DNA of 64,000 nt. Source: Candidatus Woesearchaeota archaeon. GTDB taxonomy: Archaea; Nanobdellota; Nanobdellia; Woesearchaeales; WJKR01. The stretch spans positions 9,894-73,893 of the forward strand of contig JAFGNA010000010.1 in NCBI GenBank assembly GCA_016927245.1, given 5' to 3'. Of this stretch, positions 667 to 22,102 are shown one piece after another (within the stretch, counting starts at the first letter, position 1; each line of letters opens with the position of its first letter). A model generated the notes under the pieces. That model did not search any database. It saw only the letters and a program-made list of their open reading frames with translations, and was not told the DNA's origin. The position numbers and the translations under genes are program-made.

Positions 667-670
667 AAAG

Positions 671-2567: not shown

Positions 2568-3719
2568 ATGGCGAAACAGGAGACCAAGAATGAGGACTAC
2601 GAGAACGCCACATTCACCTATGTCACGCCGGGCACGGACCTGGAACGCGAGAACATGATCCTCAAGCAGACCGTCTCGCAATTGCGGACAGAGCTCGACC
2701 GTTACCGCTCACCCGCCCTGATGGTGGCCGAGGTCGTCGACGTCATGGGAGACAATGCCATCATCCGCGTCCCGAACGGGAACAAGTTCTACGTGGACGT
2801 CTCGTTGTCGGTGAAGGGCATCAAGCCGGGCAACACCATACTCGTCGAGCAGAAGAACCTCACCATCGTGGACAAGCTGGAGCGGAACCGCAAGCTCGAG
2901 GCAGAGCAGTTCGTCATCATCGAGAAACCTATCGTCACCTGGGACGACATCGGCGGCCTCAAGGAGCAGATACGGGAAATACAGGAAGTCATAGAGCTCC
3001 CCTTGAAGAAGCCGGAACTGTTCAGGAAGGTGGGCATCAAGCCGCCGAAAGGAATACTGCTGCACGGCCCGCCCGGCACAGGGAAGACCTTGCTCGCCAA
3101 GGCAGTCGCAGCGTCTACTGATTCCGTGTTCATCGAGATCGTCGCTTCCGAGCTGGTGCAGAAGTTCATCGGAGAAGGCGCCAAATTGGTGAAGGACATC
3201 TTCAACCTCGCTAGGGAGAAGGCGCCCGCCATCATCTTCATCGATGAGATGGACGCGCTGGCCGCGAAGCGCATCGACCTGGGCACGTCCGGCGAGCGCG
3301 AGGTGCAGCGCACGTTCATGCAGTTCCTCGCCGAGATCGACGGGTTCAAGAACCTGGACAACGTGAAGGTCATCGGGTGCACGAACAGGAAGGACATCCT
3401 CGACCCCGCGGTGCTCCGGCCGGGCAGGCTGGATCGCCTCATCGAGGTCCCGAACCCTGACCGGGAGGGGCTCGAGCAGATATTCAAAATCCACACCAAG
3501 GAAATGACTCTGGACAAGGACGTCGACGTCAAGCGCTTGCTCAAGCTCATGGACGGCTTTTCAGGCGCTGAGGTCAAGGCCACTGTGACCGAGGCTGGCT
3601 ATTTTGCCATCCGGAAGAATCGGCGCAAGGTGATACAGAAGGACCTCGAAAAGGCCGCTGATAAGGTGCGTCGCGGCGAGGAGGATGGCCCGGGCGATTA
3701 CACAGGGATGTTCGGCTAG
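2568..3719 (+). CDS. pan: proteasome-activating nucleotidase (AAA+ ATPase, PAN/Rpt family)
   Basis: N-terminal coiled coil (LERENMILKQTVSQLRTELDRYRSP), OB-like segment, Walker A GPPGTGKT, Walker B IIFIDEMD, and the second region of homology. Length of 383 aa is typical. Confidence 0.93.
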   Translation: MAKQETKNEDYENATFTYVTPGTDLERENMILKQTVSQLRTELDRYRSPALMVAEVVDVMGDNAIIRVPNGNKFYVDVSLSVKGIKPGNTILVEQKNLTIVDKLERNRKLEAEQFVIIEKPIVTWDDIGGLKEQIREIQEVIELPLKKPELFRKVGIKPPKGILLHGPPGTGKTLLAKAVAASTDSVFIEIVASELVQKFIGEGAKLVKDIFNLAREKAPAIIFIDEMDALAAKRIDLGTSGEREVQRTFMQFLAEIDGFKNLDNVKVIGCTNRKDILDPAVLRPGRLDRLIEVPNPDREGLEQIFKIHTKEMTLDKDVDVKRLLKLMDGFSGAEVKATVTEAGYFAIRKNRRKVIQKDLEKAADKVRRGEEDGPGDYTGMFG

Positions 3720-4303
3720 AGCAACTTCTCGTATTCCTCAGCGATCTCCTCTATGATTTCAAAGTGCTTCTTGAGCTGCTCGTCAAGGGTGAGTTCGTGG
3801 TTGACGAGGACGCGGAAGGCGGCGGCGTTCTGGAGTATGTTGAACAGGATGGTCTTGAGCTGGAGGGGCTTCTTCTTGCTGAGGAGGAGGTCGAGGAATA
3901 TCTCCAGTTGTTCGGCGTGGTGGTCGATGCGCTGGTTGTAGCGGTGATGCTTGGCGAACTCTTCTGCTTGTTCTTCCGAGACTGTTTCTTCAATCTCTTT
4001 CAGCGCTCGTTCCTCTTTCAGGTCGTACTTGAGGAGTTCCTTGTCCAGGTAGAAGATGTCCTGTATCCATTTCTTGACGCTTTGGACGTGGTCGTAGATG
4101 CTGGTCGGTGCGTCGTCGAGGTCCATGCCGTCGGTGACGCGGTCATCCTTGATGAGGACGTCGCACGCGGCGATGATCCTGGTGAGGAGGTCCTTGAACT
4201 GCTTGTGGAGCTTGTGCTCGTCCATGGGCGGCTTGTGGGGCTCAGGGTATTTAACGGTTTCGGAAAGAGAGGATGACCCCTCGATAGTTACTCCAATCAT
4301 CAT
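3716..4303 (-). CDS. hypothetical acidic helical protein
   Basis: 195-aa ORF. Its stop overlaps the pan stop convergently by 4 nt. No motif recognised. Confidence 0.55.
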   Translation of the reverse strand: MMIGVTIEGSSSLSETVKYPEPHKPPMDEHKLHKQFKDLLTRIIAACDVLIKDDRVTDGMDLDDAPTSIYDHVQSVKKWIQDIFYLDKELLKYDLKEERALKEIEETVSEEQAEEFAKHHRYNQRIDHHAEQLEIFLDLLLSKKKPLQLKTILFNILQNAAAFRVLVNHELTLDEQLKKHFEIIEEIAEEYEKLL

Positions 4304-4405
4304 CCTGTGACGTCAGTCGGTGTTCACCATGTCATCGGGGCGGCTGTTGGTAAGTGGAGGGGGTTTATAGGCATATTTATTTACTATATAGAAAATTATT
4401 TTGGT

Positions 4406-4431
4406 AAAAAAAAGCCTCTACAAAGAGAGGC
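4406..4431 (-). terminator. hairpin + U-run terminator (minus strand)
   Basis: Minus strand reads GCCTCT-CTTTGT-AGAGGC followed by T8. It lies about 100 nt downstream of the stop of 4530..5219. Confidence 0.55.
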
Positions 4432-4529
4432 TTTCATAAGAGAGTATCGCCACGTCGCCGAGACAAAAGAGGCAGCGACAAGCGCCATCATCACCAGAGA
4501 AGACGAAGAACGCTCCGACCCTCAAGGCG

Positions 4530-5219
4530 CTAATGCCTCGCGAAGCTCTTATCAGGCATCACCAGGAACCTCTCTTTCAAGGATCCCTTGACGTTGCCGT
4601 CATAAGAGCGCACCTCGACGCGCAATGCCGGCGCCTTGCCCTCCGCGAAGAGGAACTCATCCCTCCTGTCAGCCAACCAGCCCAGATCATCGACAGTGCC
4701 AGGCACATCAAAAAAGAACCAGCCCCAACCGAGGTCCCAGCCAATGATGTAACCACCCAACAGCAGTCTCGAATCGTTAAGGTCAAGCACGAGCGGCACG
4801 GGCGCAGGGTTCGGGACCGCGCTGGCTTCCAACAAGTATTTTTCCCTCGGCGCCCCGCTACGCTCAATCTTGCACCCGTTGACCATCATCGCGTTCGCAG
4901 GGGGGAACTTCGGCGCAACAATCCTCGGCAAGGTCACCGTGCCTTCACGGATGGTGTCCTGGTACCAGTAATCCAGATCCTGGCCCTTGGCGTAGACGTA
5001 GACCTGCATCTCGCCTCCCGCCAATCCTTTCGTAGAGAGGTAGTAGCCCACCCAATCAGCACAGGAGGCGCCGAGCGTGGCCTGGTTGTCATCATAGATT
5101 GCCTGCTGCCGCGCCTGCTCCTTCCTGAGCGCCTCTGCAGCTTCTCGTTCTTTCTTCTTGCCGCAACCAGTCCCTAGGACCAGCAACGCAGCCATCAAGA
5201 ATGATAATAGTCGTTTCAT
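4530..5219 (-). CDS. putative lipoprotein (signal peptide + lipobox-like LGTGC)
   Basis: Track ORF 4530..5465. I prefer the internal ATG at 5219, giving MKRLLSFLMAALLVLGTGCGKKK. The longer N-extension is Phe/Leu-rich junk running through an A/T-rich upstream region. Confidence 0.65.
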   Translation of the reverse strand: MKRLLSFLMAALLVLGTGCGKKKEREAAEALRKEQARQQAIYDDNQATLGASCADWVGYYLSTKGLAGGEMQVYVYAKGQDLDYWYQDTIREGTVTLPRIVAPKFPPANAMMVNGCKIERSGAPREKYLLEASAVPNPAPVPLVLDLNDSRLLLGGYIIGWDLGWGWFFFDVPGTVDDLGWLADRRDEFLFAEGKAPALRVEVRSYDGNVKGSLKERFLVMPDKSFARH

Positions 5220-5314
5220 AAAGCAAAAGGTTTTTGAAAAGTGAAAAACTAATCCGTTAAACTCATTCAGAGAAAAAAAAAGCCTGGAAGAGATGATTCT
5301 CAGAAGAACATCAC

Positions 5315-5551
5315 TCAGGGCATCGGCTGTGAAAAGATTGCAAAACCAAAAAAGATAGCCGCCGCTCCGAGGCCGAGAGCAAGGAGGTCGATCATCACCG
5401 ATAAGAAGAAGAAAAATTTCCCCTCTGCCGTCGGCCTTCCGGTACGGGAAAAAAAAGAGTAGCACAACACGAAGCCGAGCAGCATGATAACGAAGCCGAG
5501 CAGCTTGTTCGCGAAGAATATTTCATCCATTGAGTATTGCAGTGATTCCAT
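5315..5551 (-). CDS. small membrane protein, two hydrophobic helices (78 aa)
   Basis: Hydrophobic segments LLGFVIMLLGFVLCYSFF and FFFFLSVMIDLLALGLGAAAIFFGFAIF are separated by a short basic loop. Confidence 0.5.
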   Translation of the reverse strand: MESLQYSMDEIFFANKLLGFVIMLLGFVLCYSFFSRTGRPTAEGKFFFFLSVMIDLLALGLGAAAIFFGFAIFSQPMP

Positions 5552-5580
5552 AAGAAAGATTTTTTTGTCGATGTAACAAT

Positions 5581-5628
5581 AAAAAAAAAGAGAATCCCTC
5601 TCAAGAGGAATCGTTCCCGGTGAGAGGG
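5581..5628 (-). terminator. hairpin + U-run terminator (minus strand)
   Basis: Minus strand has CCCTCTCA(5628-5621)...TGAGAGGG(5603-5596), an 8-bp stem, followed by T9 (5589-5581). It sits immediately downstream of the stop of 5636..5845. Confidence 0.6.
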
Positions 5629-5635
5629 CGCGCGA

Positions 5636-5845
5636 TCACTCGCGTTGCAGCTCAAGCTTGTCCACAAGGAGCCGGTCCAGCCGCTTGTGCACGACGCCTT
5701 CGTCATCGCAGTACGTAGCGTTCAGGTGCGCGCAGTACGCGTACGACGAATCGAAAGGGTCGAGCCCGACGAACGTGTAGACCAATCCTCCCCAACACCG
5801 TACCTTATCGCCGTTCTTGAACGGCAATTCCCGCTTATTTCCCAT
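5636..5845 (-). CDS. hypothetical small protein (69 aa)
   Basis: ORF is followed by the terminator hairpin above and lies 16 nt downstream of the preceding ORF's stop. No motif recognised. Confidence 0.45.
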   Translation of the reverse strand: MGNKRELPFKNGDKVRCWGGLVYTFVGLDPFDSSYAYCAHLNATYCDDEGVVHKRLDRLLVDKLELQRE

Positions 5846-5860
5846 GACACAAGGTTTTTC

Positions 5861-6325
5861 TCAGTAGTCCGGGTTGTGGTGTTTCCGTAACTCCTTCTCG
5901 AGGAGGCCGCGCATCCCCTCATGACTGGTGAAGAGACAGACAGTATGGATGTTGCGGTGCACGCCCTCGAGGGGTGTGCCGATGGAGTAGTCGAGGATGC
6001 CTTGCACGGTATCCAGAACGACTTGTCCGAGGCGTTCGTCACTAAATGACTCCCATTCAGGGCGCTTGAAGACGGGCATGACGGCCATCTCGACCCGAGA
6101 ATCCCTTCCCGCCTTAGAGAGTGCCTTATGGACGAGTTGCCGGGCGTCCAACTCTTCAGAATTCACGAGGAGGAACCGCCTCATCTTCTTCATGACAGCG
6201 AGGTCTTCCACGCCTTCCTTTTCGGTGATGACACCTATCTCTCGCCCTTCCCTGCTGAACAAGAACCCTTCATCAGGATTCACGAGCAGGACGAACAATG
6301 ATGGTTTGATATCGAATCGTTGCAT
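5861..6325 (-). CDS. hypothetical protein (154 aa)
   Basis: ORF in the co-directional island. No motif recognised. Confidence 0.55.
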   Translation of the reverse strand: MQRFDIKPSLFVLLVNPDEGFLFSREGREIGVITEKEGVEDLAVMKKMRRFLLVNSEELDARQLVHKALSKAGRDSRVEMAVMPVFKRPEWESFSDERLGQVVLDTVQGILDYSIGTPLEGVHRNIHTVCLFTSHEGMRGLLEKELRKHHNPDY

Positions 6326-6417
6326 AACTAGAACTTTTTTTGTTTTTCTGATTATTGATTATTGTCTTGCTTGAATCGTTCTCCTCGAAAGAAGAAGACG
6401 GTGCGCTAGCACCTGCC

Positions 6418-7257
6418 CTACAGGGCTTTTTGGAGGGGGATGGTCTGACGCTCATGATCGATGGGGACGAGGAGCAAGCAACCGTTCCCGGCCCCGAAGA
6501 CCACCAGGTCAGCACGTGGCTTCTTGCCCGCTCGTTCGACGCGCCCCACCGGCCAGAGGTCAATGACGTGCCGCGGACCGACGAAATAGCTGCTGCGCCT
6601 GCACTTCTCCAATTCGCTGATGTTCGTCCGCCAACCGTGGTAGAGGTTCCGCGAGACGCGGGAACGCCGGTGGTTGCGCAGATAGGCGTCGATGCTCGTC
6701 GAGAGGACCGCCGAACAGTCTGAGCGCCAGAGAAAACTCCTTAATACCCCCTCGTACTTCCCGCTCATCCTGCTCATAAGACACCTCAACTGCTTCTTGG
6801 AAGAGGCATGGGAGATTATCACCCCGGAAGAGTAGGTGTTCCAGTAGACATGGAACCGCTTGCTCCGAAAGGAATCGATGATTTCCTGCCTGGTGAATGT
6901 AGGACCGCAATGGCGCTCGTAGTGCTCGTCATGATTTTTTTTGAGCATCCAATCGTATGGTGAGAAAGGCGTGAGGGATTGGCAACAGTCACCGCCCATC
7001 ACCCATTCGTCATCGACATAGTCCTCGTACCACATGAGTGGCGGCCCGATAACGCCATCGACGGCCTTCTGGACCCCGACGACACGTCTGACATTCCTCG
7101 TTACCGGGTTGATGATGACATCGCCGTGCTTGAGACCGGTGAACTCCTCGCAGGCATAGTCTGAGACGTCGATATCGACAGCCTTTTTGGTGCCGGCGAT
7201 GCTGTACGTTCTCATGTTCGTGTTTGTTCGCATAGCTCCATTATTTTTGATGATCAT
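6418..7257 (-). CDS. hypothetical protein (279 aa)
   Basis: ORF in the co-directional island, rich in Trp/Tyr/Cys/His. No motif recognised. The start is uncertain because several early Met codons exist. Confidence 0.55.
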   Translation of the reverse strand: MIIKNNGAMRTNTNMRTYSIAGTKKAVDIDVSDYACEEFTGLKHGDVIINPVTRNVRRVVGVQKAVDGVIGPPLMWYEDYVDDEWVMGGDCCQSLTPFSPYDWMLKKNHDEHYERHCGPTFTRQEIIDSFRSKRFHVYWNTYSSGVIISHASSKKQLRCLMSRMSGKYEGVLRSFLWRSDCSAVLSTSIDAYLRNHRRSRVSRNLYHGWRTNISELEKCRRSSYFVGPRHVIDLWPVGRVERAGKKPRADLVVFGAGNGCLLLVPIDHERQTIPLQKAL

Positions 7258-7287
7258 ATTTGTGCGTCATATCTCATCTCGCGGTTC

Positions 7288-8229
7288 TCAGGCGCTCATG
7301 GACACCTCAAGGTCTCGCATGAAGAACTCGCCCGTCTCCATCGATCGCCGCAGCTTGTCGATGAACAGGCCAAACCGCTGCTCGGCGAGCCCCATCTTGT
7401 CCTGGTCTGCCAGGCAGCACAGGTGGACGTTGAACGTCACCCTGAGCAGGAAGGTGTCCCCTGCTGAGAGGACGCGGTCGCCACGCACCATGACCGAGCG
7501 CTCGAGATAGTCGTTGAGGGTGAGCGGGTACTCTGCCACCAACGGATAGATGAGCATCCCTGCTGATTCCATCCTCCTCGTCACGCCGTCAGGGAAGTAG
7601 AGGTCTGCGTCGTTGATGACGCGGAGCACCCCGTTCCTGAAAGATTTCAAGGTAATCCTCCCAGCTACTGCCGAGCCGTGCTCGACGGTGATGAGTCGGA
7701 AATGGTCGTCGAAGAAGACTTCTCGAGCTCCAAGGGTCCACGGCTTCCTGCACACCGAGCACCGTTCGTGCTTGCCCGCGAGGTACGCGGCCCGGAATAG
7801 GGGGAACAACCGGTTTTCCGGGAGTGAGACGTCAATCCCTTTCCCTTCTAGGAATGACTTGTAGTCATTGAACGTCATGACAGGCGCGACGGGTTCCTCC
7901 CCTGCCAACGCGTGCGTCGGTAGTTCGAGGGTGCGCATGAGCAGCCTGCCATGATGGGTGAGGCAGAGGTTGCCGAACAGGACCCATCGCCTGATATCGC
8001 TCTGCGACAACCCATAGAGGAGCCGCTGTCCTAAGGTGAGGAGCCGGAGCTCTTCCTCGTCCTCCAGTAAGGAGAGGATGCCGTCACTGTCGGTGAACAC
8101 CCTGACGAGGTTCTCGCTGTCCTCGCTGATCGTCTCTGCGCGCGCGATGGCTCGCAAGGCCGATTCGAGCTTGTTATGGTGTGAGAATGGATTGTTCATG
8201 TCTTGTCTGTTTTTTGTTATGTGTGACAA
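7288..8229 (-). CDS. hypothetical protein (313 aa)
   Basis: ORF in the co-directional island. No motif recognised. Confidence 0.6.
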   Translation of the reverse strand: MSHITKNRQDMNNPFSHHNKLESALRAIARAETISEDSENLVRVFTDSDGILSLLEDEEELRLLTLGQRLLYGLSQSDIRRWVLFGNLCLTHHGRLLMRTLELPTHALAGEEPVAPVMTFNDYKSFLEGKGIDVSLPENRLFPLFRAAYLAGKHERCSVCRKPWTLGAREVFFDDHFRLITVEHGSAVAGRITLKSFRNGVLRVINDADLYFPDGVTRRMESAGMLIYPLVAEYPLTLNDYLERSVMVRGDRVLSAGDTFLLRVTFNVHLCCLADQDKMGLAEQRFGLFIDKLRRSMETGEFFMRDLEVSMSA

Positions 8230-8314
8230 TAAGTAGTGGTTCTCATAGCGTCCTGAGGAGAGGTGATCGGCCGCCGCCCACCATCCTCCTTTCTGATGGT
8301 CTTCTGCCGCGTCC

Positions 8315-8818
8315 TCATAGCTCCGCCTCCTCGCCAGTGCGTTGCGTGAATGACCGATAGAACGTTGCGAGCACGTCGGCCTTTCTTTGGGGATCCTCGA
8401 TGGTCACGTAGCCGTCGGGGAACGATGAGCATCGCCCATCGTCGACGGTCGAAGAGGGGAGGAGGTCTGCGACGGAGGGATCGATGTACTCTTGGAGTAT
8501 GGCCTTGGCGTCTTCGCCGAGCGATTCTCCCCAGACCAGTATGTGCTTCACGAGCAGCCTCGGATTGACCGACACCTCGAAGTTGTCGACGTAGTAGCAG
8601 AACAAGAGGTTAACGACATCGTCGCGGCGGTCTCTGATGAACCGCTGGAGCTCTTCAATGAAAGAGCTATGCTCATCGGGGCGCATGAAGCTCTTGATGC
8701 GCAGCATGCCGTCGTGCTCATAGGAGCCTTTCCTGGACAGCAGGGTGATGAAGCAGAAGGCGAGCCTCAACAAGGAGCAGATTTGTCCTTCTATTAATCG
8801 TGTGTTATTGGTCTTCAT
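8315..8818 (-). CDS. hypothetical protein (167 aa)
   Basis: ORF in the co-directional island with a C/A-rich leader (…CCAATAACAATAGCAATCACC-ATG). Confidence 0.55.
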   Translation of the reverse strand: MKTNNTRLIEGQICSLLRLAFCFITLLSRKGSYEHDGMLRIKSFMRPDEHSSFIEELQRFIRDRRDDVVNLLFCYYVDNFEVSVNPRLLVKHILVWGESLGEDAKAILQEYIDPSVADLLPSSTVDDGRCSSFPDGYVTIEDPQRKADVLATFYRSFTQRTGEEAEL

Positions 8819-8929
8819 GGTGATTGCTATTGTTATTGGTGTGTGGATGTGTGATAATCATTGGTGGTGAAGAACCGAGGAGCGTGAGCGCGGCTCATCT
8901 CCCCGGTTCTGGCCTTTCGGCGGGAAAGC

Positions 8930-9421
8930 CTAGGACGTAGCAGCGAACAGCCTTTTCGAGAGGAACCTGTTATCACTGCAGAAATCCTTGATTGCCCGCT
9001 TGAACGATTCTCGCTCAGCGGTCGCGGCTCGCTGCGGGAAACGATCGTCCAGGTACCTTGCGAAACGCTTGACTTTCCTTGCGTACGTCTTGCACTTCCG
9101 CTTGACCTTGTACTTCGTGACGTTTTCTTCGTAGACGCGGCTGATGCAGTTGTCCGCGGGGCCGGTGACGAGCTCGTTGAACTGACCGGTCATGCCATGG
9201 GACAGCGACTTGTTCTTGTCGGTCTCTCGCTCCACCCCTTCCAGCAATGGTCCGTAGTACGCCGTTGCTTCTTCCGCCAAGGCCATGACCCTCGCCTCGA
9301 CGTTCGCACGCTCCTCGCAGGTGATCGGGCAAAGGTGCCAGTTCGGGATGAGGATCCATGCTATGACGCCGCCGATGATGAATGCTCCGACAGCGATAAT
9401 GATGACATAGGTTTTTTTCAT
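8930..9421 (-). CDS. membrane-anchored hypothetical protein (N-terminal TM)
   Basis: N-terminus MKKTYVIIIAVGAFIIGGVIAWILIP acts as a signal anchor, followed by a charged soluble domain. Confidence 0.6.
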   Translation of the reverse strand: MKKTYVIIIAVGAFIIGGVIAWILIPNWHLCPITCEERANVEARVMALAEEATAYYGPLLEGVERETDKNKSLSHGMTGQFNELVTGPADNCISRVYEENVTKYKVKRKCKTYARKVKRFARYLDDRFPQRAATAERESFKRAIKDFCSDNRFLSKRLFAATS

Positions 9422-9479
9422 GATGATAGCTTTTTATTGTTGTTGATGATACGATGCGATATGCATGGAGGAAAACGAG

Positions 9480-9508
9480 GTGCCGACAGGTGCCGGCACG
9501 CTCGTGCC
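9480..9508 (-). terminator. possible hairpin terminator (minus strand)
   Basis: Directly after the stop of 9509..11272 the minus strand reads GGCAC-GAGC-GTGCC. An alternative hairpin GTGCCG-N8-CGGCAC is followed by CTCGTTTTCC. Confidence 0.35.
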
Positions 9509-14415: not shown

Positions 14416-14444
14416 GATGTAAATTTTTTTGGTTTTCTCCTTTT

Positions 14445-15305: not shown

Positions 15306-15585
15306 GGTGATGCCAATGTTTTTTGATGATGAAAATATTGCGTTTGATGCTTTCAGATGATATCGCCGTTCTTGATGCCGCGGCACCTTGAGGCGATGGT
15401 CTTCTGCACGTCGTTCTCTGCGAGCTTCTCGTCTGTTATTTCCTGTAAGGTCTCTTCGTCGAGCTCTCGCATGAGCGCTTCGAGGTGTTGTTTGAATAGC
15501 AGGAAGCAGCCTGTTTCCTTGAGATGTCTTTCCTCTGCTCTGCGAGGAATGTTTCTTGGGTGCTCTTCTTTGTCTCGCTTTTAGG

Positions 15586-15993
15586 TTATTCTCTGCGCTT
15601 CCTTTCCTTATCTTTCAGAATAAGATGAGGGATCTTGATGAAGACGTAGTGCGGTAGCCGTTTGTGGTAGTGGTCCGCCTGCCTCTCTATCGCTTCGTCG
15701 TCTTCTTCGTAGTGCCAGTAGATGAGTTGCTCCTTCTCTTCCTTGATGAGCTTTCTGAGGAGCTTGGCCAGGCTTTCCCTTGCTGAACTGTCGATGTACT
15801 CCATCTTGACGTGTATGGTTGAGAAGTCAAGCGATTCGAGCCGTTCGCTGAGGTTGTTGAAGAAGTCGTTGTCGATTTCTCCTTCCGGTACGAGCAGTCG
15901 TCCTTTGATGATAAGCTTGGTGAATGGCGGTTCTTCTTGGACGATCACTTCAGGAGTGTTCTTGGTCGCTGTTCTGATGATGATTGTTTCCAT
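15586..15993 (-). CDS. SiaC-like / DUF1987 family protein
   Basis: The pattern TKNTPEV…G(R)LLVPEG…F…(L)…MEYIDSSARESLAKLLRKL…LIYWHYEEDDEAIERQADHY follows the DUF1987 (SiaC) signature TP.V…G.S.PE…L.Y.NTSS…L..L…W.Y…D. Recognised from memory, not from a search. Confidence 0.6.
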   Translation of the reverse strand: METIIIRTATKNTPEVIVQEEPPFTKLIIKGRLLVPEGEIDNDFFNNLSERLESLDFSTIHVKMEYIDSSARESLAKLLRKLIKEEKEQLIYWHYEEDDEAIERQADHYHKRLPHYVFIKIPHLILKDKERKRRE

Positions 15994-16036
15994 GTTTTTC
16001 TCTTTTTTTGCTGTTCTTCTGTCCTTTTGTTGTTCT

Positions 16037-16273
16037 TCAGTCGGTCGTCGTCCTTTTGCGGTCTTCTTCTTTCCCTGCGAGGTCGCTGATCCTGTTGGCG
16101 ATGAAGACGCCGACGAAGAAAATCGCGATCGCTGCGATGATGAGTATCCTTACGTGCACTGGCTTTGCGAGGCAGGGAACGGTGAGTACGAGGAGCAGGT
16201 AGAGGAGCCATGCGATGATGAGGATGTTGCCTGTGGTCACCAGCTTTTTCTGATTGTTCCAGAGCTTTTTCAT
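16037..16273 (-). CDS. small two-helix hairpin membrane protein (78 aa)
   Basis: NILIIAWLLYLLLVLTVPCLA - KPVHVR - ILIIAAIAIFFVGVFIA, then a charged tail. Confidence 0.5.
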   Translation of the reverse strand: MKKLWNNQKKLVTTGNILIIAWLLYLLLVLTVPCLAKPVHVRILIIAAIAIFFVGVFIANRISDLAGKEEDRKRTTTD

Positions 16274-16313
16274 GGGCGTGGTTGTTTTTTGGTGGATGAT
16301 GATGTTTCTCTCA

Positions 16314-16342
16314 TAAAAAAAGAGGAGCGGGCGCTCGCCTCC
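16314..16342 (-). terminator. hairpin + U-run terminator (minus strand)
   Basis: Minus strand has a GGAGGCG…CGCTCC imperfect hairpin followed by TCTTTTTTTAT, 30 nt downstream of the stop of 16372..16926. Confidence 0.45.
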
Positions 16343-16371
16343 TTTTCAGGGCGGTCCGCGCTCGCTTCTTA

Positions 16372-16926
16372 TCAGTAATTAGCGTCTTTTTCCTGTTGGC
16401 AGTAGTGCCAGGGCAGCTCTTCGTGGACGCCTTCGTAGTAGATGGCGCTCATCGCCTCGTCAGGTGTCAACCGGAGGTTGTTCAGGTCATAGCGGTATTC
16501 GTGCGTCCCGTGCTCGTGGTTGATGATGATGTAGAACATCTTCGCGTCCTTTTTCCCGGTCGGGCTGTAGGTCGCCACTTCTGCGGTGATGTTGTCGCTG
16601 TAAGCGCCTTCGTTGATGTTGTGGGCTTTCCTGAGCTTCTTCTCGTTGAAGAAGTACTCCTCGTCGTGCTTGTTGATCGGTATTGGTTTGTCCTTCTCGT
16701 AGACGAAGACGTCGAAGAAGTTGTGCTTCTTCCGGTCCGTCACGTAGGTCTTGAACGCTACTTGGTATTGGTTGTCAGGCGTTGCTAGTTCTTGGGTGAG
16801 CACGACGTACTCGTCCCCGGCGATGGTGGTGAAGTCGACGTCCTGCGCGGCTAGCCTCGTGGCTGCTATGAGGACGATGATGATGCTCCACCTGGATTTG
16901 ACGTTGTTGTGATTGTCTTTTTTCAT
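16372..16926 (-). CDS. secreted hypothetical protein
   Basis: Signal peptide …RWSIIIVLIAATRLAA|QD. The mature part is beta-rich and rich in Tyr/Asn/Lys. Confidence 0.6.
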   Translation of the reverse strand: MKKDNHNNVKSRWSIIIVLIAATRLAAQDVDFTTIAGDEYVVLTQELATPDNQYQVAFKTYVTDRKKHNFFDVFVYEKDKPIPINKHDEEYFFNEKKLRKAHNINEGAYSDNITAEVATYSPTGKKDAKMFYIIINHEHGTHEYRYDLNNLRLTPDEAMSAIYYEGVHEELPWHYCQQEKDANY

Positions 16927-16981
16927 GATTATTACTTTTTTTCGTGGATACTTGCTTGGTCGTTCTTTTGATGGGTTGGAA

Positions 16982-17431
16982 TCAACGCGTCTCGATGCCG
17001 TGCTCGTGCTGGTGGTCCTTCACGAACCGTGCGAGGAAGCGCGTTGCGTGCATGATGAACCAGAGGCTTGCCGTGACCATCCATACTGAGGCGAGGTAGA
17101 GCGGTATGGTTCCTCTGACGCACAGGGCGAAGGCGAGGAGTGAGAGGAGCGAGTAGAGCGCGTAGCCGTTCTCCCTTTGCAGGTATGCCTTGGTGACTTC
17201 GTCTTCTTCGAGGAAGAGGTTTCTGCAGACATAGAAGCTTATCTTTATGAACCCTGCGAGGAAGAGGGTGATGAACGCGTAGTACCACAGGATCTTGGCG
17301 TCGAGCTCGTCGTATTGGTGGAAGAAGTACGTGATGAGTGCGATGACGAGGAGGAGGTAGGTGATGAGGATGATGGTGTCAAGCAGTCCTTTGGACGGCT
17401 GGGCGTGATTAATGGTTTTTTGCTTTTTCAT
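16982..17431 (-). CDS. polytopic small membrane protein (~4 TM)
   Basis: 149 aa with four hydrophobic segments. No motif recognised. Confidence 0.55.
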   Translation of the reverse strand: MKKQKTINHAQPSKGLLDTIILITYLLLVIALITYFFHQYDELDAKILWYYAFITLFLAGFIKISFYVCRNLFLEEDEVTKAYLQRENGYALYSLLSLLAFALCVRGTIPLYLASVWMVTASLWFIMHATRFLARFVKDHQHEHGIETR

Positions 17432-17469
17432 GATGATTGCGTTTTTGATGAGACATAGTGTTATTTTAG

Positions 17470-17537
17470 CGCTTCCGCCAGGTTTCGAGCCTGGAGATGA
17501 CTGGTTTAGTCATCCACGCCTATTCGTGTAGGAAGCG
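17470..17537 (-). ncRNA. tRNA-like cloverleaf, non-canonical (possible tRNA remnant or mimic)
   Basis: Minus strand reads CGCTTCC-TA-CACG-AATAGG-CGTG-G-ATGAC-TAAACCA-GTCAT-CT-CCAGG-CTCGAAA-CCTGG-C-GGAAGCG. It has a 7-bp acceptor, U8, a D-loop GG and a T-loop-like UCGAA. Against a real tRNA: no U33, a 2-nt variable region, an extra nt before the 3' acceptor strand, and a C1-G72 pair. Confidence 0.3.
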
Positions 17538-17592
17538 GGGAGGAAAGAAGCGCCTGTAGGGGCTTGCTCCTTTCCTGTAATGAGAGGTTTTC

Positions 17593-18435
17593 TCAGAGCG
17601 CGGCTTTCAGCTTGCGTTCTTCCTCTAGTCGCGCTAAGAGTTCTTTTGAGGTGAACGGGAGCCTGAGGTAGTGTCGGTGCTCGTTGACACTGGGCTTCAT
17701 GAATCCTGCGACGAAGATTACTTGCCAGGGCTTTGCCACGCCTTGCAGCTTGGTGTATGGTCCTGTCTTGTCGAAATTCGACTGCTTCGCCTCTCCTGCT
17801 ATCTCTCCCAGGATGATTGCGCATTCGGGGTTGGAGATGATGAACTGCTTGGCTATCTCCTCATCTGATAGGTCGTCGTTCACGTACATGAGTTGCATCC
17901 CTATCTCCTCGGCTATCGCTTCCGCCCATTTCTTGTTCGCAGGCTCGTTCAGCTTCCCCCCTACAACGAACAGTCCTCCTCTGCGTTCCTTGGGCTCCTT
18001 CTCTATCACTTCTTCCTTGAACCAGAAGTCGTATACTTCTTTCCAGTCCTTTTCCTTTCCTGTTTCGAAGCAGTTCGCCTTCTGGTAATCTTCTCTCTTG
18101 AGCTGGTCGAGCGCCCAGGCTATTGGACCGCTGTGGTGGCCGAGGTCGGTCACGAGAGAAACGGCCTCTATTCCTTTGTTGATCGCTATCAGTGCTATGA
18201 TGAGCCCGTAGGGGACTTCCTTGCCGATTTCGGGGTGGTTCATGCTGACTCCTTCCGCTTCTGCTGGTAGCATGACGTCTGTGAAGACGGCGTCGATGTC
18301 ATCATGGGTGGAGAGTTGGATTATGGCTCCTGTGTAGGAGTTCGCGAATAGGAGGTTGCAGATATTTCCGAGTTGTTCCTGTGCTCGTTTGACATTGGCT
18401 GTTTTGTCATCTACTACTAGTATTGTCTTGTGCAT
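17593..18435 (-). CDS. CheY-like receiver domain protein with second receiver-like half
   Basis: N-terminus has ILVVDD…DAVFTDVMLP (acidic pocket and phospho-acceptor Asp pattern). The C-terminal half ends …VIFVAGF…YLRLPFTSKELLARL, resembling a receiver alpha4-beta5-alpha5 (KPF->LPF). No output domain recognised. Confidence 0.55.
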   Translation of the reverse strand: MHKTILVVDDKTANVKRAQEQLGNICNLLFANSYTGAIIQLSTHDDIDAVFTDVMLPAEAEGVSMNHPEIGKEVPYGLIIALIAINKGIEAVSLVTDLGHHSGPIAWALDQLKREDYQKANCFETGKEKDWKEVYDFWFKEEVIEKEPKERRGGLFVVGGKLNEPANKKWAEAIAEEIGMQLMYVNDDLSDEEIAKQFIISNPECAIILGEIAGEAKQSNFDKTGPYTKLQGVAKPWQVIFVAGFMKPSVNEHRHYLRLPFTSKELLARLEEERKLKAAL

Positions 18436-18656
18436 GGCTGGTAAAGGTTTAAATTGTTAATAATCATTTTTTTGGCGCTCTTGGTGGTAGTCGAACCTTG
18501 GTCAAAACTTACACCTTGATGGTCTTGCCGCTTTGCCGTCGCGGTGTGCAAGAGATGTATTTGGTTCTGTGCTTCTCCTGGAGTCCCATGGATGAATGCT
18601 CAGGCAGGGATCGTTGGGATCGCTGGGGTTCAGATGGTGGGATTGAGTTCTTCTAC

Positions 18657-19064
18657 TTACATGCTTTGACGGTCGTCGCCGACGATGGTCTTTACTGACG
18701 CGGCCAACGCTTCGTCGTCGGGCATCCTCGTCGAGTTCTTGCACAAGTGGATGCCTTGGACTTCGTAGTCTTTGATCTCGGTGGCGATGGTGCTTATTAG
18801 GACTGTCCTCATGTCGGCGCTGAACCAGACGCGGTTGAGGGCCGTGATGTCTTGGGTGATGAGATTCGCGAGGCGTTTCTCCCACTTGTTGATGCCGATG
18901 AGGATGCCTGCTGGGATGAGGAGCAGGGGGGCAAAGATGCTCATGAATTCTGCGGCGCTTGGGAAGATGAGCGGGGCGATGATGAATGATACTCCTAGGA
19001 TGAGGAGGAGGGTGGCGGTGATGGTTCTGCTGAACCTTTTCTGAATGATAGCTGAGAGTTTCAT
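18657..19064 (-). CDS. membrane protein (2 TM) with soluble C-terminal domain
   Basis: TATLLLILGVSFIIAPLIF and FAPLLLIPAGILIGI. Preferred over the overlapping His/Pro/Arg-rich ORF 18502..19107. Confidence 0.5.
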   Translation of the reverse strand: MKLSAIIQKRFSRTITATLLLILGVSFIIAPLIFPSAAEFMSIFAPLLLIPAGILIGINKWEKRLANLITQDITALNRVWFSADMRTVLISTIATEIKDYEVQGIHLCKNSTRMPDDEALAASVKTIVGDDRQSM

Positions 19065-19451
19065 GATGATTTTGGTTTTTGGTTTGTAATGTTTCTGTTA
19101 GTTTCACGTGTTTTTCCGGAGCTTTTCCGAGACTTGTGGTTTTGGTGTATAGCTCTCGCTAAGAAGCGGGTGTGTTCCAGAGCGTCTCTGAGCGGGTTTT
19201 TCGCCTTTGGTGCTCGTTGACGTTTCGTGGTCTCTGGTGCGCGGCAATCAGTGTTCGTCGGGGTGGTCTCGCAGATCAGGCACGTGCCGGTGGTTGGTGT
19301 GTGGTGTTCCTGTCTGTTCTGGCGACCTTCGATGCTGTGTGCAAAAAGCGGTTATTCCTGTTTTTTTGGGAATGGTTGTTTTTGCTGCTGTGTGGTTGTC
19401 GCGTCTTGGTAGTGTTTGGTAGTTGGGTGTGTCGTCGGAAGAAGCACAACT

Positions 19452-19467
19452 AATATATAAATCTTTC
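19452..19467 (-). promoter_or_regulatory. BRE/TATA promoter (minus: GAAAGATTTATATATT), identical 16-mer to 22087-22102
   Basis: Consensus archaeal TTTATATA with a purine-rich BRE, 10 nt downstream of the ATPase stop. It is followed on the minus strand by a ~385-nt C/A-rich tract leading to the ATG at 19064. Confidence 0.5.
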
Positions 19468-19476
19468 GAAAATTTA

Positions 19477-21516
19477 TCACTCTTTAGTGGTTAAAATTTT
19501 GTCGAGTTGGTCGGAGCGGTGGGTGATGACATGCTTAGACCAGCCCTTCGGCGACCGGGACTCCTCGATAGAGATGACGCCCCCGTCCTCCAAGGACCGC
19601 TTGACCTCGTTGCCCTTGCGCGGCGACAGCGAGGCCTCCTTGTACAGAGCGGACACCGACAGCTCCGGATGGGCGCGGGCGGCGACCAGGAACGAGACCT
19701 CATCCCGGGAGAGCGAGAGCTCTGCAGGCGCTCCTGCTTTTGCAGACGCCTTCCTCAAGAGCTTGACATCCAATCCCTTGCGCTCGAGGTAGCGGAACAC
19801 GTGCAGCACGTCCACCCGGTTGTACCCCGCAGCGAGGAACCATTGCTTCAGGTCCTGCGCAGACTCGCCGTCCAGCAGGCGCTTCTTCGCGTCCTCAAGA
19901 ATCTTCTGCTGGAGGTGGTTGCGGATGCCGATACCCCCCTTGCCGTCCTTGCGCGACTGCTGGTGCGCGTCCTGCGCCGCCTGCGCCGCTTTGCGCGCCT
20001 CGTCGAACGCGACGTGCTCTCTCAGGACGTCCCGGTCCGGCTTGGTCCCGCTCTTGATGAACACGTATTCCAGGTCGTCCAGCTTCCTGGCCAATTCCTC
20101 CTCGCGCACGCTCTTCGCGAACACCTCCTTGCGCTTCTCCTGCTTGAGCAGGGAGCGCATGCGCTCGCGCAGCTCGGGCTCGTCGATGGCGTGCGCCTTG
20201 AGCCTGACGAGGGGCGCCTTGATTATGAAAGGGTCATGATGACGCTCGACGAGGCGCACGATGCCAACGCCGACGGGGAGCTTGGTGAAGAAGGCCTTGT
20301 GGTCTTGGAGCTGCATGAGACGGGAGATGGCCTCGATGTCAGCAGGGAGCATCTGCTGGAACGCGATGTTCGTCGCGGCGTTGCCGGACACCACATCTGA
20401 CAGCTTGCTCACGTGCTGGTCCAGGGCGATGAGGGAGATGCCGTACTCCCTTATCTCGCGGAAGATGACGTCAGCAACGCTCTCCGAGATGAACGTGGGG
20501 CGCTCCTTGAGGAAGATGTTGTGCGCCTCGTCCACGAGGATGGCGTACTTGAACTCCTCCGTCGCGTTGACATTGCCTGCCTTGGCGTACTTGTAGATGT
20601 AGGAGAGCACGAACTGGGTGAAGAACCGTTTCTCGGTGTTGGAGAGCGATGCCAGTTCCATGACGACCTCCTTGTCAAAGAGCTCCTCGATGCTGTTGCC
20701 TTCAGGCCCCTTGTAGCACAGGGCCTTGCCGAAGTTGCCGAAGGTGAGGGCGTACGCGATCCTCAGCGATGATTCGAGCCATTCGCCTTCCCTGCTCCTC
20801 CCTGCTGATTGCGCCTTGGTCTCCAACCTGTCCGTGACCTGGTACCATGTCGGATAGTTCCCGGAACCGGCGTACACGCCGAAGTCGGTGAACGCCTGGT
20901 CCATGGTCTGGACGAGCATCTTGTGCACGCCGAAGCTGGCGCTGTAGCTTTCTGTGATGATATCTGCGAGGAGGTTGATCCATTCCTTTGGGTCCACTCC
21001 TCGCGGCGGCTTGCAGATGTTGAGCTTGAAGTTGGCGACGTTGTCGTTGCCGACGGTGTAGATGCGTAGCTTGTCATTGAGCTTGATGAGTGGCCTGAAG
21101 GATTTCTTCCAGTCAAAGACGAGGAATGGTTTCTTGTTGAAGATGAAGTTGCCGAGTATCTGGAACGCGAACGTGGTCTTGCCCGAGCCGCTCATGCCCG
21201 TGACGCAGACGTGTCGTATCCAGTCCCGCTCGCGCAGGCTGAACGGGTAGAGCTCTTTCTTGCCGTATATGACCGTGCCGAGGGGGTAGGGTCCCTTGAT
21301 GGCTTCTTTCTTTGGCGGCTCGAGGAGGAGTTCCTCGTTGAGGAGGCTCTCGGTGAGGTGTTTTTGGTAGAGCGCTTGGAGCGCTTGCTCTATCTCTGCC
21401 TTGCTTTGCCGGTCGCTGGTCATAACATATTTGAGGTAGAGGTGGTCTATCTTCTTGCCGAAGATGGGCCTGAGCCGCTTGCAGATATCCTCTACCGTCA
21501 TGGTCTTGCTGTACAT
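19477..21516 (-). CDS. HerA/VirB4/FtsK-superfamily P-loop ATPase (DUF87-like) with C-terminal winged-helix
   Basis: Walker A VTGMSGSGKT and Walker B YAILVDEAHNIF. FLVFDWKKSF matches the DPKGE-like strand and LIALDQHVSKL matches the Q/R-finger strand of HerA/VirB4/T4CP ATPases. The last ~70 aa look like a MarR-like wHTH. Confidence 0.8.
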   Translation of the reverse strand: MYSKTMTVEDICKRLRPIFGKKIDHLYLKYVMTSDRQSKAEIEQALQALYQKHLTESLLNEELLLEPPKKEAIKGPYPLGTVIYGKKELYPFSLRERDWIRHVCVTGMSGSGKTTFAFQILGNFIFNKKPFLVFDWKKSFRPLIKLNDKLRIYTVGNDNVANFKLNICKPPRGVDPKEWINLLADIITESYSASFGVHKMLVQTMDQAFTDFGVYAGSGNYPTWYQVTDRLETKAQSAGRSREGEWLESSLRIAYALTFGNFGKALCYKGPEGNSIEELFDKEVVMELASLSNTEKRFFTQFVLSYIYKYAKAGNVNATEEFKYAILVDEAHNIFLKERPTFISESVADVIFREIREYGISLIALDQHVSKLSDVVSGNAATNIAFQQMLPADIEAISRLMQLQDHKAFFTKLPVGVGIVRLVERHHDPFIIKAPLVRLKAHAIDEPELRERMRSLLKQEKRKEVFAKSVREEELARKLDDLEYVFIKSGTKPDRDVLREHVAFDEARKAAQAAQDAHQQSRKDGKGGIGIRNHLQQKILEDAKKRLLDGESAQDLKQWFLAAGYNRVDVLHVFRYLERKGLDVKLLRKASAKAGAPAELSLSRDEVSFLVAARAHPELSVSALYKEASLSPRKGNEVKRSLEDGGVISIEESRSPKGWSKHVITHRSDQLDKILTTKE

Positions 21517-21518
21517 GG

Positions 21519-21995
21519 TCAGTCACGCAGGAGGTGCTCTATCATGCCCGCGCTGTGTTCTTGTTCGCGGTACTCGTGCATCCGGTCGCGTAGCTCTTTC
21601 TTGAGGGCGGCGATGTCTCGGAACGCGTTGATCTTCTCGTTGAGCTTGAAGGCCTCGATGTCGAGGAGCTTCTCGCGCAGCTCTGCTTGTTTCACGGTGT
21701 CTATCTTGTCTCCGGCCGCGGCGAGGAAGTTGTTCATTTGCATCATGATCTTGTCGATGTCCCCGAAGACCTCTTGCTGGAGGGATTGCCGTTCCGCGAT
21801 GAGGATCTCGATGTCCTCGATGACCTCTTTGATGTTCATGATCTTGGCGCCTTGGAGGTCTTGGAGGAGGTCGTCCATGCTGGTGTTGGTGTAGTTGTCC
21901 TTGATGTCCTTGATGGTGGGCGTGAGGGTGTAGTCTGGTTTGGGGTCTTCGTTGCGGAGGAAGCCGTCGAGGAGTTCGTGGTCGATGGTGGCCAT
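21519..21995 (-). CDS. coiled-coil hypothetical protein, translationally coupled to the ATPase
   Basis: 158-aa heptad-rich ORF. Its stop at 21519-21521 lies 2 nt before the ATPase ATG at 21516. Confidence 0.6.
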   Translation of the reverse strand: MATIDHELLDGFLRNEDPKPDYTLTPTIKDIKDNYTNTSMDDLLQDLQGAKIMNIKEVIEDIEILIAERQSLQQEVFGDIDKIMMQMNNFLAAAGDKIDTVKQAELREKLLDIEAFKLNEKINAFRDIAALKKELRDRMHEYREQEHSAGMIEHLLRD

Positions 21996-22086
21996 GGGTG
22001 CGCGCCTCTTTTTTCTTGTTTTTCAGATGGAAAACCCTGGAAAACCAAGGGAAAGCTGTTTAGTATCTACGAGTGGTGGTTAAGAG

Positions 22087-22102
22087 AATATATAAATCTT
22101 TC
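22087..22102 (-). promoter_or_regulatory. BRE/TATA promoter (minus: GAAAGATTTATATATT)
   Basis: Same 16-mer as 19452-19467. It lies ~95 nt upstream of the ATG at 21995, and the leader contains the tandem repeat TGGAAAACC x2 (22028-22046). Confidence 0.5.

Follow-up and report, generated by a model that had tools for sequence, protein, structure and literature searches.

Do the 24 consecutive minus-strand genes that lie between the genes for PAN and Trm5 in a woesearchaeal genome encode a single machine, or does the run join parts with different histories? The genes are found in a stretch of 64,000 nucleotides (nt) of Candidatus Woesearchaeota archaeon (GenBank assembly GCA_016927245.1, contig JAFGNA010000010.1, positions 9,894 to 73,893), hereafter called the window. 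It is archaeal, with a guanine-plus-cytosine (GC) content of about 58%, and homologues of its genes carry the names Woesearchaeota or Nanoarchaeota. A sequence-only reading had taken the run as an 18-kb island headed by a HerA/VirB4-class ATPase and had proposed one envelope, transfer or secretion module. Comparison with related loci shows a different architecture, which recurs across the clade and which that reading had missed: a conserved operon of a coiled-coil protein and the ATPase, a conserved promoter and leader, and, on the 3' side only, an array of 22 genes that is unique to the species, rich in envelope proteins and atypical in GC content. We hold this description with high confidence. 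No published account of such an architecture was found in the literature.

The coiled-coil/ATPase operon and the array behind it

All credible open reading frames (ORFs) between PAN and Trm5/TYW2, which bracket the block, lie on the minus strand and tile positions 3716-21995. They comprise the coiled-coil gene, the ATPase gene and 22 array genes that run from 19064 down to 3716 and are coding over 13.3 of 15.8 kb (Table 1). Frames were picked by coding periodicity, with island means of 0.55, 0.36 and 0.73 for GC at the first, second and third codon positions (GC1, GC2 and GC3), and the count of 24 genes made earlier was borne out. The start/stop couplings seen before are also real: 2 nt separate the coiled-coil stop from the ATPase ATG, and an ATGA overlap is present at 11658-11661, provided that the downstream gene (array gene 12) begins at M29. 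As had been stated, only three of the 24 proteins resemble known families, since DUF87 and SiaC alone exceed the Pfam cut-off and a receiver domain stays below threshold.

The ATPase alignment was scanned over one genome per GTDB species, which gave 80 loci (numbered with L), and three more were obtained by exact-protein look-ups. More than 750 ATPase homologues, with 45-73% identity, are named Woese- or Nanoarchaeota, and some of them are located on contigs of about 1 Mb. The closest ATPases are those of L004 (73%), L001 (71%) and L002 (62%). In these three loci Trm5 stands directly upstream of the pair, and the identity of the ATPase follows that of Trm5 (71/70.5% in L001 and 62/60% in L002). 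The GC content of the ATPase gene matches that of the genome in every locus. A homologue of the coiled-coil protein was found in 73 other loci of the 83 compared, directly or a short way upstream of the ATPase; a few loci have orphan genes inserted between the two. The operon is shown to be native and vertically inherited across Woese-, Pace- and Nanoarchaeota. The invariant residues of the coiled-coil protein make up the motif RDIAxLKKELR, and comparison with Pfam and PDB profiles returned coiled-coil noise and no family.

According to the AlphaFold2 (AF2) model of the ATPase (mean predicted local distance difference test score, pLDDT, 82), a short helical N-domain is followed by a RecA-type motor (residues ~75-440), long helices (446-524) and two C-terminal winged-helix domains; no transmembrane (TM) segment is predicted. 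The protein matches Pfam DUF87 (PF01935) with 33.5 bits at a cut-off of 23.2 (E 6e-8). Walker A (GMSGSGKT) and Walker B (DEAH) are invariant across 22 homologues, as are Y625, S631, R633, G658 and K661 of the last winged helix. A Foldseek search with the model returned HerA (4d2i, E 1e-11), DndH-C (7es4, TM-score 0.74) and VirB4 (4ag6, TM-score 0.71), and the top structures also include the defence-type Sir2-HerA and DUF4297-HerA. In a viral structure library, HerA-like and conjugal-transfer proteins outscored capsid-packaging ATPases. The nearest named NCBIfam families are all below cut-off, namely CedD (59 bits against 600) and CedB (28 against 700); the VirB4_plasma model gave 22.5 bits against 590. 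With just ~75 residues ahead of the motor, the protein lacks the VirB4 N-terminal domain. On the modelled fold, the protein belongs to the HerA/VirB4 class of the FtsK-HerA superfamily, in agreement with the sequence-only reading. Families of NurA, Mre11 and Rad50 were not found at the locus, where the neighbours are Trm5, the coiled-coil protein and orphans. In addition, ATPase variants of 589 aa, including that of the Nanoarchaeia lineage of L049, are accompanied by a separate downstream gene of 63 aa that is winged-helix-like by sequence; it is read as the detached C-terminal winged helix of the shorter ATPase.

The array behaves differently from this pair. Apart from a single 50-residue domain, none of the 22 proteins has a homologue in L001, L002 or L004. 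The exception is gene 7, the sole island protein with a domain common to another array (36% over 50 aa with L001:18197-18751, jackhmmer). These three loci, and most others, carry a run of their own of 5-25 small, mostly co-directional genes that is unmatched elsewhere. In a control of the 28 loci that extend 8 kb or more to either side of the pair, a homologue in another locus was found for 16% of the downstream and 53% of the upstream genes (Fisher p 6e-23), and 71% and 60% of the genes, respectively, were co-directional. Same-strand coding in the arrays amounts to 185 kb, against 58 kb on the opposite strand. The distance from ATPase to PAN is 15.8 kb in the window and 32 kb on the L001 contig, where orphan runs extend from the ATPase side toward PAN and PAN is the only gene beyond the ATPase common to both. 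The pan-trm5 frame is therefore conserved, while the content and length of the ATPase-PAN interval are not. It had been asked whether the block is present or absent as a unit; the survey shows instead that the ATPase pair and Trm5 are syntenic and that the array is replaced. One island forming one machine is likewise contradicted, because the ATPase and the coiled-coil protein are native and conserved and the 22 downstream genes are not, even at 71-73% ATPase identity.

Orphan status is extreme for some array proteins. Nothing other than itself was matched by gene 13 in a library of 5.8 billion proteins, or by gene 16 when 1.84 billion representatives were scanned exhaustively with HMMER. About 85% of 150 array proteins from 16 loci have no Pfam match; the matches obtained in arrays elsewhere (OmpA, TraT, pilin N_methyl, VWA, FG-GAP, DUF5018, sigma-70, RNA polymerase alpha-CTD) are heterogeneous and often bacterial-type or envelope-related. 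A TM segment is present in 58% of the array proteins of at least 60 aa and in 22% of the conserved neighbours (39 loci). In most loci, the GC content of the array departs from that of the host genome, being lower in high-GC hosts and higher in low-GC hosts (0.54 against 0.59 in the window, 0.48 against 0.59 in L001 and 0.37 against 0.27 in L080). Translation signals vary as well, with GGAGG in L002 and A-rich signals in the window, L001 and L004. Orphan status, atypical GC content, differing translation signals and heterogeneous domains together point to gene turnover by acquisition as the source of the array differences, not to fast divergence of positional orthologues.

Several arrays have conspicuous members. 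That of L001 includes two bacterial-type sigma-70 genes (regions 1.2, 2, 3 and 4; L001:19690-20544 and L001:21903 onward), and the sigma-70, RNA polymerase alpha-CTD, TraT and OmpA families found in arrays are bacterial-type and have no obvious archaeal use. In the Nanoarchaeia lineage (L049:14745-21590, also L066 and L075), the gene directly 3' of the ATPase codes for a secreted protein of 2282 aa, whose SLT lytic transglycosylase domain is of the peptidoglycan-cleaving type. In a marine lineage (L084:8500-16812, and L085-L089), ScpB and GyrA flank the locus, and the array has just three genes, of which one is pilin-like; the same layout is seen in many samples that carry an identical ATPase sequence.

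The class of the ATPase and the membrane proteins behind it could suggest a minimal machine of the T4SS (type IV secretion system) or Ced/Ted kind, in which the hairpin proteins would be pilins and the polytopic proteins analogues of VirB6 or CedA, all diverged beyond recognition. VirB4, CedB and CedD are indeed the nearest named ATPase families, the island has two 78-aa two-TM hairpins and three small polytopic proteins, pilin-like and SLT-domain proteins occur downstream in other lineages, and there is a precedent in Patescibacteria (PMC12102498). Yet the family scores are far below cut-off, the ATPase has neither the VirB4 N-terminal domain nor a TM segment, and no VirB6-like, VirB3-like or pilin partner is conserved. 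No component is kept even at 71-73% ATPase identity, where gene number and gene lengths differ too, and drift alone cannot wipe out all similarity of the partners while the ATPase stays 71-73% identical. Homologues of the 22 genes are absent from relatives or non-syntenic there, the outcome that the sequence-only reading had itself set against its proposal, so these genes are not conserved T4SS or Ced parts. We regard the explanation as improbable.

Another origin to be weighed is the remnant of an integrated provirus, plasmid or integrative and conjugative element, with the ATPase as its hallmark gene. One-directional small orphans, a HerA/FtsK-type ATPase and a GC content below that of the flanks would fit it, and HerA-like proteins of arCOG00280 are common in integrated elements (PMC4158269). 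On the other side, no integrase, replication, capsid or relaxase family is among the Pfam and PHROGs matches, which upholds the earlier statement on the first three, and no tRNA gene and no flanking direct repeat of attachment-site (att) type was found. Neither 50,697 phage nor 72,556 plasmid records gave a tblastn match to any of the 22 array proteins, and an ATPase profile found no relative among IMG/VR viral contigs. In PHROGs no array protein matched, apart from a weak match to the receiver-like N-terminus of gene 2 (280 aa), and NCBIfam gave nothing beyond weak receiver matches (gene 2) for the island proteins scanned. With host-like composition, a conserved chromosomal position and clade-wide occurrence of the ATPase, an integrated element is extremely improbable, and the earlier suggestion of an integrated plasmid or virus is not upheld.

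Chromosomal integrons have a single upstream promoter and a long co-directional array of mostly promoterless small orphans of atypical composition. The locus resembles them in its one promoter and its co-directional orphan array of atypical composition beside a conserved gene. It differs in that no tyrosine recombinase was found, no attC-like or other repeat recurs between the genes, and the 8-nt motif described below is at background density outside the leader.

A HerA-based anti-virus defence locus, made of a conserved motor and variable downstream effector or decoy genes, was also considered. The ATPase gives weak PADLOC matches to the mad8, DndH and HerA models, its top structural matches include Sir2-HerA, DUF4297-HerA and DndH, and a variable region of atypical composition is known from defence islands. 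Against this, the pair is strongly conserved and present in most sampled loci, whereas defence genes are patchy; none of the eight island proteins scanned matched in PADLOC, and the locus lacks a nuclease, Sir2, DUF4297, Dnd or methylase partner. Moreover, the array proteins are mainly membrane or secreted, and Pfam matches in arrays belong to envelope, metabolic or transcription families. A defence function is quite improbable. The provirus, plasmid, integron and defence-island readings each fail their defining tests.

Promoters, leader and the 8-nt motif

The operon and the array share a promoter sequence. The B recognition element (BRE)/TATA promoter of the operon, AAAGATTTATATATT, recurs as an identical 15-mer just behind the ATPase gene. 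This second copy is the only canonical TATA box ahead of the entire 15.8-kb array, and a TATA box is kept at the equivalent position in L001 and L004. Within the array, four intergenic T-runs of at least seven residues follow the genes at 16372, 5636, 5315 and 4530.

Between the second promoter and the first array gene, a non-coding leader occupies most of a 412-nt gap. About 250 nt beyond the promoter begins a conserved block, GGCGAAAAACCCGCTCAGAGACGCTCTGG...TTAGCGAGAGC...CGGAAAAGCTCCGGAAAAAC, which contains a copy of the 8-nt motif at 19195-19202 and is kept in L001, L002/L003, L004 and L034 with an inconsistent reading frame. A small ORF in the block was considered and rejected, as stops fall in different frames in L034 and L002, the GTG start is missing from the window and the substitutions are not 3-periodic.

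The core of the motif, GAAAAACC, is part of G[AG]AA[AT]ACC (GAAAWACC). The 500 nt behind the ATPase carry it at 3.3 copies per kb on the coding strand, compared with 0.23 per kb elsewhere, and 64 of the 80 loci have at least one leader copy. Upstream of the coiled-coil gene it occurs at about 1 per kb per strand, an enrichment of 5-9 fold across loci. In the window, the two tandem copies at this place, GGAAAACC, can pair with a downstream GAAAAAC to form a hairpin. A genome-wide skew of the kind shown by FtsK orienting polar sequences (KOPS) was rejected, since the 10 matches in 64 kb of the window are close to chance and cluster only at the two promoter regions.

In the Pace-type loci, four to five direct copies of the motif about 32 nt apart alternate with hairpins that show G-U pairs and compensatory changes. 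In an alignment of seven sequences, 89.7% of the hairpin cells are paired, against at most 48% when the partners are slid, and 14 pairs have double changes, against 1-5 in the slid controls; the observed score was reached by none of 500 shuffles. A covariance model built from these leaders detects the element in 17-18 loci, in every case on the ATPase strand and immediately behind that gene. Neither nhmmer nor this model gave a match in the clade of the window, and the leader of that clade is tied to the Pace-type leaders by position, promoter, motif and its own conserved block only. Rfam 15 contains no credible match to the leader of the window or of L050, and none was obtained at gathering score across seven loci. 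A match resembling a C/D-box small RNA (sRNA) at 18975-19035 (+) was dismissed as chance, being antisense inside a gene and scoring 20.8 bits against 45. Possible identities of the leader are a cis-regulatory RNA of a new kind, an sRNA and an array of protein-binding repeats.

Some Pace-type loci have a tRNA gene upstream of the operon (L037:493-575, L033:8553-8635, L050:9226-9308, L068:1723-1805 and L046:3278-3360). In L050 it is about 0.3 kb from the operon, and in Pace-type loci motif copies lie between the tRNA and the coiled-coil gene. The Pacearchaeota contig of L068 also carries, near the ATPase locus, a match to RT-16 RNA (Rfam RF03019; L068:45-245, +; 71 bits, gathering score 50).

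Gene content of the array and flanking regions

The coordinates are collected in Table 1. Much of what the sequence-only reading had said of single proteins stands: an N-terminal hydrophobic segment or signal peptide, a lipobox or TM helices were recognised in 12 of the 22 downstream proteins, and the two 78-aa hairpins (genes 5 and 20), the three small polytopic proteins and the lipoprotein-like protein are present. No paralogy was found among the island proteins.

Table 1. Features of the pan-trm5 interval of the window and leader equivalents in related loci
Feature	Position	Strand	Length	Remarks
PAN	2568-3719	+		flanking gene
Array gene 22	3716-4303	-	195 aa	acidic helical orphan, convergent with PAN
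Array gene 21	4530-5219	-	229 aa	lipoprotein-like MKRLLSFLMAALLVLGTGC; lipobox LGTGC
Array gene 20	5315-5551	-	78 aa	two-TM hairpin; T9 run after gene
Array gene 19	5636-5845	-	69 aa	orphan; T9 run after gene
Array gene 18	5861-6325	-	154 aa	orphan
Array gene 17	6418-7257	-	279 aa	orphan, basic, Cys-rich
Array gene 16	7288-8199	-	303 aa	soluble orphan
Array gene 15	8315-8818	-	167 aa	weak N-terminal hydrophobic segment
Array gene 14	8930-9421	-	163 aa	N-terminal TM anchor
Array gene 13	9509-11272	-	587 aa	signal peptide; C-terminal third alternating beta-strand-like, end ...FTISYLF
Array gene 12	11335-11661	-	~108 aa	acidic; start overlaps gene 11 stop (ATGA)
Array gene 11	11658-12395	-	245 aa	soluble orphan
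Array gene 10	12497-13036	-	179 aa	one N-terminal TM anchor
Array gene 9	13113-13559	-	~148 aa	polytopic, 3-4 TM; refined start MKKSTYQ
Array gene 8	13621-14415	-	264 aa	N-terminal TM helices and internal signal-peptide-like stretch LIFLLILTTTSLSAQ
Array gene 7	14445-15305	-	286 aa	soluble
Array gene 6	15586-15993	-	135 aa	SiaC/DUF1987; Pfam PF09345
Array gene 5	16037-16273	-	78 aa	two-TM hairpin
Array gene 4	16372-16926	-	184 aa	signal peptide (...ATRLAAQD)
Array gene 3	16982-17431	-	149 aa	polytopic, 3-4 TM
Array gene 2	17593-18435	-	280 aa	N-terminal receiver-like domain
Array gene 1	18657-19064	-	135 aa	2-3 TM; GC3 0.77; no homologue in any locus
Array leader	19065-19451	-		non-coding
Conserved leader block	~19105-19206	-	~100 nt	GGCGAAAAACCCGCTCAGAGACGCTCTGG...TTAGCGAGAGC...CGGAAAAGCTCCGGAAAAAC
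Second promoter	19452-19466	-	15 nt	AAAGATTTATATATT; 11-25 nt after ATPase stop
ATPase	19477-21516	-	679 aa	HerA/VirB4-class P-loop ATPase (Pfam DUF87, AF2, Foldseek)
Coiled-coil protein	21519-21995	-	158 aa	ATPase partner; no TM, no known family
Tandem 8-nt motif copies	22029-22046	+		two copies GGAAAACC; antisense in coiled-coil 5' untranslated region
Operon promoter	22087-22101	-	15 nt	BRE/TATA AAAGATTTATATATT, read from sequence; 31-45 nt after trm5 stop
Trm5/TYW2	22132-23142	-		flanking gene
Leader equivalents	L050:12041-12233; L046:7011-7198; L037:4238-4423			Pace-type loci; others also present

Gene 6 matches SiaC (PF09345) with 40.1 bits at a cut-off of 24.5 (E 3.4e-10), and no SiaA/SiaB partner is recognisable. 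Gene 2 matches the Pfam receiver family PF00072 over its first 60 residues only, with 17.7 bits at a cut-off of 30.2. The 'beta-barrel-like' character of gene 13 is a sequence pattern alone, since its single-sequence AF2 model (pLDDT 33) is unusable; its end ...SYLF is similar to the beta-signal of bacterial outer membranes, an odd trait in an archaeon with what is presumably a single membrane. Gene 22 is not conserved beside PAN in the relative L090.

The island GC3 of 0.73 is to be compared with 0.84 in core genes. Long frames at 5395-5706, 5722-6042, 8217-8432, 11148-11384, 14234-14479, 15945-16211 and 18502-19107 were ruled out as spurious by their low GC3. As for translation signals, the sequence-only reading had described C/A-rich leaders without Shine-Dalgarno (SD) sequences as peculiar to the island. 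The leaders are indeed A/C-rich and without SD, and all four occurrences of the start context AAnnnAATCATC-ATG-AAA in the window (0.08 expected) are within the island; however, an A/C-rich coding strand is a genome-wide property and not an island trait. The core genes flanking the island have a TATA box near -27, so leaderless transcripts are plausible for them. No enrichment of bacterial sigma-70 promoters or intrinsic terminators was detected in the island.

Beyond PAN, two genes of 208 and 597 aa (window 40-2464, +) are also without a Pfam family. In L090 an ABC transporter adjoins PAN, and counterparts of the two genes are absent there; for these reasons, the variable zone may reach past PAN. 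On the other side, a Fic/DOC-domain protein (23255-24259, -) is encoded in the interval from Trm5 to an EamA transporter; just one other locus has a homologue, and L001 and L002 lack it at the corresponding position. The sole Rfam match at gathering score in the window is an archaeal RNase P RNA (RF00373, 112 bits, 59919-60271, -).

Possible functions of the locus and related systems

The '18-kb island' can be read as a fixed engine with replaceable cargo, that is, as a lineage-wide DNA-translocase operon functionally coupled to a variable cell-surface array. Together with the mechanism that follows, this is the reading we prefer, tentatively and with a probability near, though short of, an even balance. 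The ATPase would act as a hexameric nucleic-acid translocase, and its winged-helix domains may recognise the 8-nt repeats flanking the operon, by analogy with FtsK gamma and KOPS and with TraB and the 8-bp clt repeats. The array would be transcribed mainly from the leader promoter as a long polycistronic RNA and co-regulated with the operon through the common promoter and motif. Its products would make up an envelope repertoire, specific to host or partner and replaceable, that works with the motor, or is serviced by it, at the cell-cell contacts of these episymbionts; the likely task is to take up or exchange macromolecules, DNA or others. On this view the 22 genes would be accessory cargo, gained and replaced by horizontal transfer, and not conserved subunits of a machine.

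A housekeeping translocase beside an unrelated flexible island would account for part of the same data. The ATPase would serve in segregation, resolution or repair, in an FtsK-like role within a lineage lacking FtsK, and the array would be the main insertion hot spot for dark-matter genes, where newcomers survive through read-through from a strong promoter and tolerance to insertion. In keeping with this, the ATPase is highly conserved, soluble and native in composition, with DNA-binding winged-helix domains, the pair lies between ScpB and GyrA in one lineage, and the array and the ATPase differ wholly in evolutionary behaviour. HerA-like ATPases with dark-matter islands are, besides, a known association in archaea (PMC4158269). 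However, the ScpB/GyrA neighbourhood is confined to that lineage, and both transcription units have the same promoter 15-mer and motif. The adjacency, the downstream-only polarity and the leader persist over a phylum-level clade while the upstream synteny changes; with the promoter also kept phylum-wide, pure coincidence is unlikely. We consider the housekeeping explanation rather unlikely as a whole.

Several observations weigh against a coupled engine and cargo. No membrane partner is conserved with the ATPase, which itself has no TM segment, and this leaves the locus with no recognisable translocation channel. Given how conserved the motor is, it is unlikely to bind specifically to proteins that differ completely from one close relative to the next, and the functional link could be regulatory or positional alone. 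In the Pace-type clade, RNA hairpins backed by covariation and G-U pairs lie on either side of the motif, and a role at the RNA level is thereby favoured over a DNA site. Sigma-70-like and RNA polymerase alpha-CTD domains in some arrays fit an envelope role poorly, and some lineages have a short and stable array, three genes before gyrA, that is identical across samples. No homologue that would point to donors of the array genes was found anywhere searched. Finally, the ORFs of the related loci came from a crude greedy caller and were compared all-against-all.

In a bolder version, which we judge very improbable, the 8-nt repeats would be a clt-like loading site from which the motor pumps chromosomal DNA one way into or out of a partner cell, conspecific or host. 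If so, no DNA of the genome would be exchanged more often than the stretch just downstream. This would explain the hypervariability on the 3' side only, the off-genome composition of the array, the foreign-looking signals and the bacterial-type genes (sigma-70, RNA polymerase alpha-CTD, OmpA, TraT, a C-terminus like that of outer-membrane proteins, and SLT). In an extreme form, the array would be cargo resembling transferred DNA (T-DNA) for action in or on a bacterial host.

By analogy, the closest mechanistic counterpart of the locus is the TraB-clt-spd conjugation module of Streptomyces, for which Vogelmann et al. 2011 is reportedly the source. In that module, an FtsK-like motor with a C-terminal winged helix has 8-bp direct repeats beside its gene, and the spd genes are short, translationally coupled and code for small, mostly membrane proteins whose homologues often cannot be assigned between plasmids (Thoma et al. 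2015, PMC4447253). The two systems have in common an ATPase of the FtsK-HerA superfamily, presumably a ring in the archaeal locus, with a C-terminal winged helix, 8-nt repeats by the gene (their binding being putative in the archaeal locus) and the diverse small membrane-protein genes that follow. They differ in that the archaeal motor has a HerA/VirB4-type fold, not that of FtsK alpha-beta, and no N-terminal TM segment; in that the archaeal locus is chromosomal, vertical and clade-wide, without rep, int or kor; in the size of the array (5-25 genes against 3-7 spd genes); and in the position of the repeats within a structured RNA leader, at least in the Pace-type clade.

The closest analogue in lifestyle is the chromosomal VirB4 T4SS of Patescibacteria, also called the candidate phyla radiation (CPR), which is vertical and nearly universal, has no relaxase and is proposed to be required for an epibiotic life; in Saccharimonadia it was shown to be essential to epibiotic growth (PMC12102498). 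Ultra-small episymbionts, a chromosomal VirB4-class ATPase, the lack of a relaxase, and adjoining cell-wall hydrolases and small membrane proteins are shared. In contrast, TrsD, VirB3, VirB6 and VirB8-like partners are recognisable and conserved there and none is found here, and the archaeal ATPase has winged-helix domains and remains below the VirB4 family thresholds. The Ced/Ted DNA import system of Crenarchaeota, with CedA, CedA1, CedA2 and CedB (PMC9905601), likewise combines an archaeal chromosomal HerA/VirB4-like ATPase with small TM proteins and exchanges DNA between cells. Here, unlike in that system, CedD and CedB scores are far below cut-off, no CedA-like polytopic partner or pilin is conserved, and the layout is one of C-terminal winged helices and a coiled-coil partner. 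Archaeal dark matter islands are clusters of fast-evolving, narrowly distributed small genes, and HerA-like arCOG00280 is among their commonest recognisable members (Makarova et al. 2014, PMC4158269). In those islands the ATPase is regarded as belonging to a mobile element, whereas here it is native and fixed in position, with a conserved leader and the island always 3'. The theme of a translocase with a variable membrane operon is known, and the leader element is novel.

Woese- and Pacearchaeota of the DPANN, an abundant group without cultivated members, are presumed to live on other cells. For the way in which they attach to partners and take material from them, the locus is a concrete, clade-wide candidate, in which a DNA-pump-like ATPase with DNA-binding domains, among the most conserved lineage-specific proteins, is combined with a conserved, unannotated leader and with a species-specific envelope set under one promoter. 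It would be an archaeal mirror of the CPR chromosomal VirB4 system needed for epibiotic growth, and the 8-nt motif, the leader RNA and the coiled-coil partner offer testable handles. The locus also shows where much of the orphan-gene content of these genomes arises or is stored, and so bears on the entry of new genes into reduced genomes.

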